Assembly: GCA_964610875.1 (NCBI GenBank) | Contig: CAZSWP010000065.1 | Span: forward strand, 1-12,578 | DNA: 12,578 nucleotides | Reading direction: 5' to 3' | Source of the DNA: an uncultured archaeon | Lineage (GTDB): Archaea; Asgardarchaeota; Thorarchaeia; Thorarchaeales; Thorarchaeaceae | Shown here: positions 9,343-12,240 of the stretch, in pieces | How the letters are laid out: each line of letters opens with the position of its first letter | Numbering within the stretch: the first letter of the stretch is position 1 | Translations under genes and position numbers: made by a program | The notes under the pieces: generated by a model | What the model was told of the DNA's origin: nothing | The model's input: the letters and a program-made list of their open reading frames with translations, nothing else | Databases searched by the model: none

Positions 9343-9358
9343 AAGTGGTGGGCTGAGC
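9343..9358 (-). repeat. Degenerate tRNA 3'-end copy 1 (att-like remnant)
   Basis: aagtggtgggctgagc matches 12145-12160 (aagtggtgggccgagc) at 15/16 positions. Confidence 0.6.
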
Positions 9359-9362
9359 TAAT

Positions 9363-10667
9363 TTATTTCACCTTTTCTATTTCACCACAACCTGCACACT
9401 GAAACTCGTATATGTATCTTTTCTCTTTTTTCTTCCAGAAGTGATGTTTCTTCTTAATGATTCCACTCTTACATCCAAGGAGCTGTGGTTTCCATTTACT
9501 CCACTCAGTTTTTCCACAACCAGTATTCATGCATTGCCATTCATATTCTAAGAGCTTCCATCTGTGATAATTCTTGAATGGTTTTTTACAGTTCCCTTTT
9601 CTACTGGGGCGTTCATTCACAGTAACGGTTTTCCCACATTTTACACATTTGTATTTCTTTACACCAGTTCTTCTCCATTTGTGCCATCTTCTTGATTCAT
9701 CAATTATTCCAATATCACATCCTGTTATTGGTGGATGCCATCTTCCTTCAGCTTGTGCATCGCATCCTGCGTTTCTACACTCCCATAAGTAGTTCTTTTT
9801 GGGAAATGCTTTTGGCATCCAGTTGTGTTCATCGAGTGCAGTACATCCGGAGGTTGATGGATAATGCTGTAATCCTACGGGTTTCGATTTATTCTCTAGA
9901 ATGTTTCTAACAATATCAATAGTGTATATTGACCATAGAATTCCATTATGACGTACACTCTTGTTATCAATACAATAATTCGATGCACCCGATACTACAG
10001 CTGTATGTCTTGGGGCAACAACCCGATCACCGGTGGTCCAGAGACAATGGAAATCCACATTCTCTGGACATTCTGGAGATGCATTGATTTCGGCCATTAG
10101 ATTGCTTCCAGGTTTTGCTTCTTGATAGCACAGTGTAGTTCCAAGAATACTATATGCCACAGTTCCAGAGCCAAGAAATACAAACACATCTGCCAGAGTC
10201 CTTACGATTTCCATGATGGGTACAGCTGTTCCATGATGTGGTGAAGAGAGTGTTATTGCTCTTGTGACCTTTCTTTTAGCAGCGGGACTCCCAATATCAT
10301 CAGATTTCAGGTAGAGTCTGGTTGCTAATCCACCCATGCTATGTGCAACTATTGTAATCTCATCAGCGGGTGGTACAGTTATTGGAGGTTCGTCGGTAAC
10401 TGGCTGCCCACAACAATCACAGGTTGGATATATCACATGTTCAACTAGTTCGTTTTCTACAAGGCCAGCCAAGTAGTTTGCATACCAATGGAAACCCTTC
10501 TCCTGTGAAACAAATTTCTCTGGTGGAGAAGGTTCAACGATGTCGTATCCATAACCGTTTCTGAAAAGATCAATCAATGGAGATCCATTCTATATCTTAC
10601 TCTTTTTGTACCATACCTTATTCGTCGCACCCCAGCCTGGCATGAATATAGCAACTTTTCTTGTCAT
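9363..10667 (-). CDS. Lipase/esterase-family alpha/beta hydrolase fused to C-terminal Cys/His (CCCH-type) repeats; interrupted by an in-frame TAG at 10590-10592 (possible pseudogene or readthrough)
   Basis: AHSMGG nucleophile, LSSPHHGT, GDRVV (Asp), VRHNGIL (His). The ORF track starts at TTG 10577, but the same frame extends to ATG 10667 and encodes MTRKVAIFMPGWGATNKVW, the missing oxyanion-hole strand. Confidence 0.8.
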
Positions 10668-10821
10668 TTTATTCAGTCCGATTGTGTATTTATTCGTCGA
10701 TTCGTTTTGTTAATTGGTGTACTTGTATTAAAGTTATATCACTCTAAAATAGATAGAGTAGACAAAATCATAGATTAATGTAGAATGTTTGCGCTCTGAC
10801 GAACTAGTTGAACTGAGATTT

Positions 10822-10848
10822 AGTGATGGGCCGAGCCGGATTTGAACC
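10822..10848 (-). repeat. tRNA 3'-end copy 2 (T arm to 3' end; att-like remnant)
   Basis: 26/27 identical to 12146-12172. Minus strand reads GGTTCAAATCCGGCTCGGCCCATCA (CCA changed to TCA). Confidence 0.9.
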
Positions 10849-10915
10849 TCAGGTAAAGAAATGAGATGGTAGTAATACTTAGAAGAAACATTACTCATAA
10901 AGTCATGAATTAAGC

Positions 10916-11431
10916 ATGTATACTGGTAGGATTAATGACCCCGAAACTAGGTTTAGAGATGCAATCAAAATACTATCAATAGTTGTACTAATTGCCCCAT
11001 ATGGGATGATTATCGATAGAGTTGGGTCTTACATCATTGCTTTCTTCTGGACAATACACATACGCAATTATGATGTAGTTGTTAGTCCTCTTATCCCAAT
11101 TGATTTCTTTTCTTTGCTTTTTCTTTTCTCACGAATAATCTTCATCTATCTTTTCGCCAGATTATATCATGGAAAGAGTACGAAGAAAACCGTAATTTCG
11201 GTGGGTGTAGTTATTGAATATTCATTAGTTTTTATGGCTATTCTACAGGGTAGTCTTGTGTTCGCATATCCTGACTGGCCCTATGTAATGATAGGACTAC
11301 CTATTCCCATTCTTCTCTGCAGCACATTAGTAATCTTGCATTATTGGCCCCTTCCCTTACAGAATGATAGATGGCTTGATGAATCACCACAAGAGGAATC
11401 AAAGTCTGCGAGTTCTCCTAATCCACAATAG
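10916..11431 (+). CDS. Hypothetical membrane protein (4-5 TM)
   Basis: 171-aa strongly hydrophobic ORF with a short acidic tail (WLDE). Its 3' end overlaps the convergent gene by 33 nt. Confidence 0.75.
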   Translation: MYTGRINDPETRFRDAIKILSIVVLIAPYGMIIDRVGSYIIAFFWTIHIRNYDVVVSPLIPIDFFSLLFLFSRIIFIYLFARLYHGKSTKKTVISVGVVIEYSLVFMAILQGSLVFAYPDWPYVMIGLPIPILLCSTLVILHYWPLPLQNDRWLDESPQEESKSASSPNPQ

Positions 11432-12097
11432 AATAATCAAAAGTGATGATATCGAAATCATGGTATAGATTGTATAAACTGCAGGAAGAGGTGAAGCATA
11501 GCTATAATCTCTTTGGAAATGGACTGACCATAGGGCATTTCCTCCTTTCTCTCGGTCATGAACCCAAAATGATGCAACATTGAGTAACCCTTTGTCCTTA
11601 TGATAACTGAAGCTATGAGAATATGTGCAACTTAGATTTTCAGGGTCCCAACGGTAGTCGTATCCCCAATAGTCTTCATCATGATCATCTACATCAAATG
11701 ACGGCGAATTGTTGTACGCTTCTTTAACTAAGGAGCTTAGCAGCGTCCAATTACCAACTGGTAGAATCATATAATGGAAACCCGAGATGAATTTACTCAA
11801 GTCTTCTATCTCTGTGTCATTTATCAGAATCATTTGGAGTGGATACTCAGGAATCTCACTCCAATTATGGAGATGTTCTGGAATAGTTGGCTGAATATCA
11901 TCAAAGGATACATTCACTCTATGTTGTATTTCGTCACCATCATAATTTCTGAATACCAGTTTATACATCAGATATCCATTGTCGGTTTCAAGATTCCAGA
12001 ATAGGCCTTGCTGTGATTGAGTATGGACCCTTGGTAATAGTAAAAGAACGAGCAAGCAAATAACAATCAATCCACTCTTAGCCCTCAAGACGATCAC
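11399..12097 (-). CDS. Hypothetical exported protein with N-terminal signal peptide and C-terminal membrane anchor
   Basis: Basic-hydrophobic N-terminus (RAKSGLIVICLLVLLLLP), several N-x-S/T sequons (NVS, NWS, NDT, NWT, NLS) and a C-terminal TM followed by RRTRR. CTTTTAT box about 25-31 nt upstream of the GTG. Confidence 0.8.
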   Translation of the reverse strand: MIVLRAKSGLIVICLLVLLLLPRVHTQSQQGLFWNLETDNGYLMYKLVFRNYDGDEIQHRVNVSFDDIQPTIPEHLHNWSEIPEYPLQMILINDTEIEDLSKFISGFHYMILPVGNWTLLSSLVKEAYNNSPSFDVDDHDEDYWGYDYRWDPENLSCTYSHSFSYHKDKGLLNVASFWVHDREKGGNALWSVHFQRDYSYASPLPAVYTIYTMISISSLLIILLWIRRTRRL

Positions 12098-12147
12098 ATC
12101 TATTCATATGGTGGAACCAAGATAAAAGTATCAATTGAAAAATAAAG

Positions 12148-12213
12148 TGGTGGGCCGAGCCGGATTTGAACCAGCGAATCGGTGTCAGATGGGAAATCCA
12201 TCTGTCTCCACCG
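12148..12213 (-). pseudogene. tRNA 3'-half fragment (copy 3; isotype undetermined) containing a 30-nt BHB intron in the variable loop
   Basis: Minus strand: CGGTGG|AGACAGATGGATTTCCCATCTGACACCGAT|TC-GCTGG-TTCAAAT-CCGGC-TCGGCCC-A-CCA. No D arm or 5' acceptor strand upstream. Confidence 0.85.
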
Positions 12214-12240
12214 CACTGAATGAATCAAATGTTGTACTAA

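Follow-up and report, generated by a model that had tools for sequence, protein, structure and literature searches.

The stretch of DNA analysed here, referred to as the window, is the whole of contig C65 (12,578 bp) from the genome of an uncultured archaeon of the family Thorarchaeaceae (G000; 3.75 Mb in 124 contigs, 40.7% G+C). Its right-hand part carries three partial copies of the 3' end of one transfer RNA (tRNA), that of tRNA-Val(GAC), which lie on the minus strand with their CCA ends at 9346, 10824 and 12148 and delimit small groups of genes, here called modules. The presence of these three co-oriented copies had been claimed in an original prediction made from the sequence alone and was borne out, since a 16-mer search allowing one or two mismatches returned these sites only and 200 shuffles returned none, which excludes a chance origin of the copies. 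An Asgard host is indicated by a longin-domain gene at 7933-8316 and, genome-wide, by numerous intron-bearing tRNAs and by tRNA-SeC calls; very small complete genomes are among those sampled from the phylum. In what follows, genomes of the family or phylum are coded with the letter G (G000 being that of the window), fetched loci with L and contigs with C. The features on which the argument depends are listed below, with lengths in nucleotides (nt) or amino acids (aa).

7394-8316, plus strand: conserved left border, formed by a 173-aa gene and a longin-domain gene (longin 7933-8316)
8377-9237, minus strand: 286-aa alpha/beta-hydrolase, between the longin gene and copy 1
9343-9358, minus strand: copy 1, 16 nt with one mismatch; last 13 nt of the tRNA (acceptor strand and CCA) and 3 nt of trailer
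9363-10667, minus strand: PGAP1/lipase-like alpha/beta-hydrolase fused to four CxxC zinc-ribbon repeats
10822-10851, minus strand: copy 2, 27 nt, 96% identical to copy 3, with one mismatch (CCA to TCA)
10916-11431, plus strand (opposite to the tRNA): 171-aa multi-pass membrane protein, orphan
11399-12097, minus strand: 232-aa secreted protein with a C-terminal membrane anchor
12148-12216, minus strand: copy 3, 69 nt; 3' half of tRNA-Val(GAC), from position 37/38 to the CCA
12241-12578, minus strand: 3' part (111 aa) of an orphan open reading frame (ORF) running off the contig end, G+C 33%

The copies and the modules between them

The three copies differ in where they begin within the tRNA. Copy 3 has its 5' boundary in the anticodon loop and bears an insertion of about 30 nt in the variable loop, presumed to be an intron; among 40 relatives searched, the segment 12139-12218 is 87-89% identical over 74-79 nt to full tRNAs of G001, G016 and G021, which belong to two other genera. 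Its length of 69 nt replaces the roughly 66 nt predicted, while the 27 and 16 nt given for the other two, with one mismatch each, were correct. Copy 2 starts at the T stem, runs through the T arm to the CCA end and takes in 2 nt of the trailer, and the same boundary class is found in G063 and many other loci. Copy 1 is followed by a pyrimidine-rich trailer, starting CTTCTTTTCA, that matches the host trailer of relatives; a trailer with the same start is common to the distal copies of G063, L080, L084 and L055 and also stands after the intact tRNA of G001, and therefore the distal-most copies of these five genomes, copy 1 included, can be read as original displaced gene ends. Copy 1 is thus likely to be the 3' end that the tRNA first had, now displaced. 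Neither ARAGORN nor Rfam reported a tRNA or a relevant RNA family in the window, and ARAGORN is blank at the copies because their 5' halves are absent.

Copies interpreted as attachment (att) sites bound both complete modules of the window, 9359-10823 and 10852-12147, and recombination genes are present in neither. As the prediction had stated, stop codons lie close to the copies, that of the lipase-like gene (9363-9365) being 4 nt from copy 1 and that of the ORF at 12241-12576 24 nt from copy 3; this last ORF is the final gene of the unassembled module nearest to the tRNA. No recombinase, primase or helicase family was found in the modules, and comparison of their proteins with PHROGs and PADLOC returned a single esterase match and zero defence families. 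With regard to integrase genes split into int(N) and int(C) fragments, as in SSV-type integration, no listed ORF of at least 60 aa spans a copy and a hidden Markov model (HMM) of integrases gave no match, although this PF00589-based model may miss divergent SSV-type fragments.

The genes of the island are orphans, with no close homologue among 85 genomes of the family. An exact-protein look-up of the 171-aa ORF returned no record, the hydrolase at 8377-9237 is not found at the corresponding position in relatives, and the 232-aa protein is a member of a surface-protein family that recurs at the same hot spot in nine other genomes. A metagenome scan with the lipase-like protein retrieved relatives of 31-48% identity only, and no close strain for comparison. 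In this gene an in-frame TAG at 10590-10592 separates off the first 25 codons, which encode the conserved N-terminal strand of the alpha/beta-hydrolase; decoding as pyrrolysine was considered and rejected, the genome being without PylD, so the TAG is probably a nonsense mutation in a decaying gene. An age gradient runs through the region: from the core to the tRNA, G+C drops from 41.5 through 40.8, 39.6 and 37.1 to 32.9% (the last value by the contig end), which fits younger foreign DNA nearer to the tRNA.

The parent tRNA-Val(GAC) and the insertion site

The parent of the copies is known from relatives, in which full tRNA-Val genes have the anticodon loop TTGACAG and hence the anticodon GAC. 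These genes bear the insertion of about 30 nt in the variable loop, which is missing from intron-less orthologues, and it is because copy 3 matches them that we regard it as the 3' half of tRNA-Val(GAC) with a presumed intron. In G000, the 5' part of the parent tRNA and the start of its 3' half are located at C9:126..1 (minus strand), an outward-facing contig end, and C9 ends inside the T loop, at exactly the point from which its sequence is also found in C65 and in another valine tRNA, located on C3. Introns interrupt the C9 tRNA in the D arm and at 37/38 but not in the variable loop; therefore the working 3' half differs from copy 3, and an insertion seems to have swapped the 3' half of the tRNA, removing the variable-loop intron from the working gene. 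T-stem alleles are swapped likewise in G070 and G075. The valine tRNA on C3 (C3:111859-111968) was labelled by ARAGORN as a tRNA-Glu(ttc) with an odd intron, and alignment with relatives identifies it as a tRNA-Val(TAC) into which extra sequence is inserted close to the variable loop; its last 28 nt are those of tRNA-Val(GAC) save one base.

The position of the tRNA to the right of the window, proposed in the original prediction, is upheld by gene order. Four relatives (G001, G016, G006 and G021) have the orthologues of window genes 1263-8316 collinear up to the tRNA 3' end and the orthologues of C9 genes 445-5075 on its 5' side, and C65 (plus) followed by C9 (plus) is collinear with all four. 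The longin gene adjoins the tRNA 3' end in G001, G016 and G006, its end being about 35 nt from the CCA in G001, and in G021 that side has the 173-aa gene, at a distance of about 2 kb; where relatives have the left-border genes next to it, the tRNA-Val(GAC) 3' end is only 15-80 nt beyond them. Since the genes of the window and of C9 directly flank the tRNA in these relatives, all sequence to the right of about 8320 is an insertion. The genes on the 5' side of the tRNA (C9:1-6000) are housekeeping genes, a dUTPase among them. A search of contig ends for overlap with the right end of C65 found none, and C52, the only integrase-bearing contig of the genome, was rejected as the joint, having no tRNA-Val fragment and no useful end match.

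Arrays at the same tRNA in related genomes

Anchoring on the conserved 173-aa gene, we fetched 66 homologous loci, about 520 kb in all. At least 18 of them, from four genera, have one to four additional copies, on the same strand, in the interval from the longin gene to the intact tRNA, that is, arrays of two to five copies, and about 12 of the arrays are assembled straight through to the tRNA; in G088, for instance, copies lie at 1351, 2612, 3636 and 5225 and the tRNA at 6856. The few opposite-strand matches are apparently beyond the tRNA, outside the variable region. Intervals between copies measure 0.39-6.0 kb (median about 1.5 kb) and hold one to three ORFs, with many modules consisting of a single intact gene set tightly between copies, and the orientation of module genes is mixed, as in the window. 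The cargo includes an esterase, an M29 peptidase, a GH4 glycosidase, TPR proteins, an amidohydrolase and a methyltransferase. Three classes of copy can be told apart by the place of the 5' end, which is the anticodon loop, the T stem or the T loop, and such discrete end points indicate site-specific recombination. Along the arrays of relatives copy length is not monotonic; the leftward shortening and decay of copies that the prediction had read in the window is therefore not erosion but the outcome of three events, with crossover positions in the anticodon loop, the T arm and the acceptor end.

The copies are the exact points at which modules have been gained, retained or exchanged; this is the shuffling that the prediction had proposed to look for in relatives. 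A module with a 268-aa methyltransferase adjoins the tRNA in G058 and lies two modules further out in G088; it is about 75% identical at the nucleotide level between the two, like the host flanks, and its distal copy has the same point mutation in both. G064, G074 and G059 have a common proximal module whose homology begins at the copy, and the rest of their arrays differ, whereas G049 and G022, of the same genus and with flanks 86-88% identical, differ in the genes that separate the distal copy from the tRNA. In G063, a pattern scan of the family found several co-oriented copies on two contigs, C88 and C118 (L027 and L028), that start at the same tRNA and differ in their modules: one version consists of an 897-aa gene, a copy, a 435-aa gene and a 10-nt copy remnant before the longin flank, and the other of a TPR gene, a 27-nt copy, four genes and a long 3'-half copy with both introns. 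Because both versions come from one metagenome bin, populations are polymorphic at this site. The 403- and 435-aa proteins next to the G063 copies were considered as a new recombinase and rejected, as they belong to a multi-copy host family with repeats (HEAT-like by eye, with no Pfam match).

In G000 two other tRNA genes, a tRNA-Gly-GCC (region C3:139002-143184) and a tRNA-Leu-TAG (region C16:30427-34475), have some 4 kb of cargo behind them that ends at a copy of their own 3' end. The repeat of the former runs about 75 nt into the trailer, the latter stretch contains a 565-aa ORF with the look of a TnpB-type transposase by eye, and no integrase-like ORF was noticed in either. The window itself has further features to the left of the island. 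Intron-rich tRNAs escape ARAGORN, and one such gene was missed at 2417-2554 (minus strand), with matching acceptor strands, an encoded CCA, an anticodon loop CTGCCAC (GCC, perhaps Gly) and, ahead of the T arm, a long insertion; the gene is kept in the loci of relatives. A weak Rfam match to sR28 (E 0.94) at 7922-7966 (plus strand), with motifs resembling C, D', C' and D boxes, could be a C/D-box small RNA overlapping the start of the longin gene. Finally, positions 1-40 recur at the ends of C1, C27 and C30 and, over 30 nt or less, also of C16, which suggests a multi-copy repeat that broke the assembly.

Origin of the island and of its modules

Taken together, the region from about 8320 to 12578, with the unassembled stretch that follows, is most probably an additive island built at the 3' end of tRNA-Val(GAC) by serial site-specific integration. 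Foreign DNA would have arrived in three or more site-specific recombination events inside the 3' part of the tRNA, each of which rebuilt the tRNA with incoming sequence and displaced the former 3' end together with its trailer and the older modules. The three copies of the window would then be the att-site scars of separate events with different crossover positions, copy 1 being the oldest and module age rising leftwards. Integrases acting at tRNA genes reportedly (Williams, in 2002) comprise anticodon-loop and T-loop crossover classes, and we infer that an integrase of the tyrosine type made the joints. Any recombinase must be, or must formerly have been, encoded elsewhere, the modules carrying cargo only.

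Several observations weigh against this interpretation. No copy was recognised to the left of the hydrolase gene at 8377-9237, and a fourth copy sought between 8316 and 8377 gave no convincing candidate; moreover, C65 and C9 are physically linked by synteny only. The integrase HMM, built from 24 integrases of the family and run on all stop-to-stop ORFs of at least 40 aa, gave nothing at E<=10 in the 66 loci, in G063:C88 or in the window, negatives that cover the assembled part of each locus, the module nearest to the tRNA being missing from the assembly of G000. The recombinases of G000 are all elsewhere, namely one PF00589 gene on C52 (334 aa), 124 nt from the contig end, and two small serine recombinases on C18. 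Among 86 genomes of the family, PF00589 was found in 29, never on the contigs of the locus, and 57 had no match.

The statement in the original prediction that the intervals lack an integrase agrees with these results, as none of the five ORFs of the region has a Pfam integrase domain; PF00589 was not found on C65 or C9:1-6000 either, nor was a large serine recombinase found in G000. The PF00589 matches of the family are mostly within about 1.5 kb of the ends of small contigs, with no universal XerA-like gene apparent, and active elements are therefore probably under-assembled. Twenty integrase-bearing contigs of the family showed no tRNA-Val fragment, and a search of IMG/VR with two att variants retrieved no element, only one unrelated tRNA (apparent anticodon GAT, Ile). 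As for mobility, four sequencing runs were examined in the form of Logan contigs, with a depth of about 5x in the two that contain the locus. Logan contigs bridge copies 1 and 2 unchanged, 12394-12578 is uncovered, and no circle, deletion or empty-site junction was present in them; the loose ends at copy 3 are tRNAs of other organisms. In X3, a run that belongs to another study, parts of the lipase gene and of the 10852-12147 module were recovered that are 93-98% identical to the window (about 3-7% differing), none of them crossing a copy, as well as one short, weak loose end at 8359.

Why the modules have no recombinase is the point on which explanations differ, and we lean slightly towards cassettes moved in trans over the remnants of larger elements. 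Each module may have entered as a minimal circle without integrase and with one att copy, inserted and excised by a recombinase supplied in trans by a virus, a plasmid or the chromosome. We hold this possibility tentatively: it accounts for the absence of any integrase or fragment from 66 loci, the arrays complete to the tRNA among them, for modules that are often one ordinary enzyme gene with its stop abutting the next copy, for gain and replacement by whole modules at the copies, and for the alternative module sets of G063 on the same tRNA and flank. The part of the original prediction that concerned accumulation of small modules anchored at a tRNA stands; the part on minimal circles served by a trans-acting integrase stays a conjecture, for neither a circle or deletion junction in the Logan contigs nor a cognate recombinase was found, the family integrase contigs and IMG/VR included, and the module nearest to the tRNA is missing from the assembly. 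The divergence of the G058/G088 module, equal to that of the host flanks, also fits old vertical inheritance over recent mobility. That same divergence suits the competing and slightly more doubtful explanation that the modules are stripped remnants of larger self-integrating elements, such as proviruses or integrative plasmids, from which integrase and backbone were deleted and useful cargo was left between att scars, a state comparable to that of the older portions of tycheposon islands in Prochlorococcus. Decay in the window (mismatched copies, the stop codon of the lipase gene and the G+C gradient) speaks for such remnants, as do the known archaeal tRNA insertions, which typically are elements of 9-23 kb with integrases (PMC9897764), the islands of Prochlorococcus with their scattered partial tRNAs (Hackl et al., bioRxiv 10.1101/2020.12.28.424599), and the probable under-assembly of active elements together with the missing tRNA-nearest module. 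However, deletion would then have had to erase every integrase fragment detectable at E<=10 from the roughly 520 kb of the 66 loci, and many modules are a single intact gene packed between copies.

Site-specific recombinases might be dispensable altogether if circles excised by homologous recombination between copies re-entered at the tRNA by RadA-type recombination, the tRNA 3' end being near-identical across genera and thus a common homology anchor where integrases are absent. We consider this improbable, because variable end points would then be expected and the boundaries instead cluster at three discrete positions, two of which (anticodon loop and T loop) are crossover classes of integrases, and because copies of 13-20 nt are very short. 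Still far less probable is that the copies are functional RNA pieces, either 3' halves of split tRNAs or processing or terminator signals, or that copy 1 is a chance match. Position 37/38 is the classical break of split tRNAs; copy 3 starts there, and T-rich trailers follow the copies. Nevertheless, the 5' part on C9 is joined to its own 3' half with a different variable loop, copies 1 and 2 do not reach the length of a tRNA half, relatives lack the DNA that the copies bound, and the shuffles exclude chance for copy 1.

Serial integration at the tRNA, the interpretation that we prefer, gives the island much in common with tandem islands anchored at tRNA genes, which also have the target tRNA at one end, co-oriented partial 3' copies bounding inserted DNA, some boundaries in the anticodon or T loop, and newer insertions nearest to the tRNA; here, unlike in those, no integrase is found in the island or the 66 loci, and modules are of 0.4-6 kb and often have a single gene. 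The closest described analogue that we found is the island built by tycheposons in Prochlorococcus, where conserved tRNA hot spots receive repeated integrations that push older elements inward (Hackl et al., bioRxiv 10.1101/2020.12.28.424599), and where partial tRNAs are likewise scattered among cargo genes that are no longer part of a functional element. Tycheposons, however, encode replication genes along with a recombinase of the tyrosine or large serine type, and their islands hold integrase fragments, neither of which is seen here, and the present host is an Asgard archaeon. Integrative elements at tRNA genes have been described in Asgard archaea, namely aloposons and HeimV1, the latter with its own integrase (PMC8813620); these share the host group and the integration adjoining tRNA genes, but they are large elements that bear giant genes or are viral genomes, and arrays of small modules without integrase are not described in that report. 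A full-text literature search for such arrays in archaea returned nothing closer than the tycheposon islands.

Cis-mobilisable elements are relics flanked by att sites and devoid of integrase, which are mobilised by accretion with an integrative and conjugative element. They resemble the present modules, which are also att-flanked, without recombination genes and stacked at one chromosomal site, and differ from them in that the modules are known from sequence alone, with no known helper element. Integron arrays, too, are rows of small, mostly single-gene modules with recombination-site repeats, a fixed anchor and variable content. The term "integron-like" used in the original prediction is acceptable as an analogy only, since the array is not an integron: IntI, attI and attC are lacking, the repeats are tRNA 3' fragments, and module genes run in both directions, which leaves no common promoter logic.

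The locus is a conserved, family-wide entry point at one tRNA, where single accessory genes (hydrolases, surface proteins, methyltransferases and glycosidases) have been added and exchanged with no recombinase detectable nearby. The apparent swapping of tRNA 3' halves by insertions links mobile DNA to the turnover of tRNA introns in archaea. Should the modules be no more than old scars, this would be a tRNA island of the usual kind, found in a new group of hosts. If they are truly mobile cassettes, it would represent a simple mechanism of gene capture in Asgard archaea, which we did not find described in the literature searched, and it would give a handle for finding the responsible recombinase. 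It is conceivable, though on present evidence unlikely, that Thor-type Asgard archaea have a cassette system docked at tRNAs, in which small att-bearing circles without a recombinase are taken up, accumulated, exchanged and shed by means of a recombinase that acts in trans or belongs to an unrecognised family; such a system would be based on tRNA 3' ends and would correspond in function to integrons.

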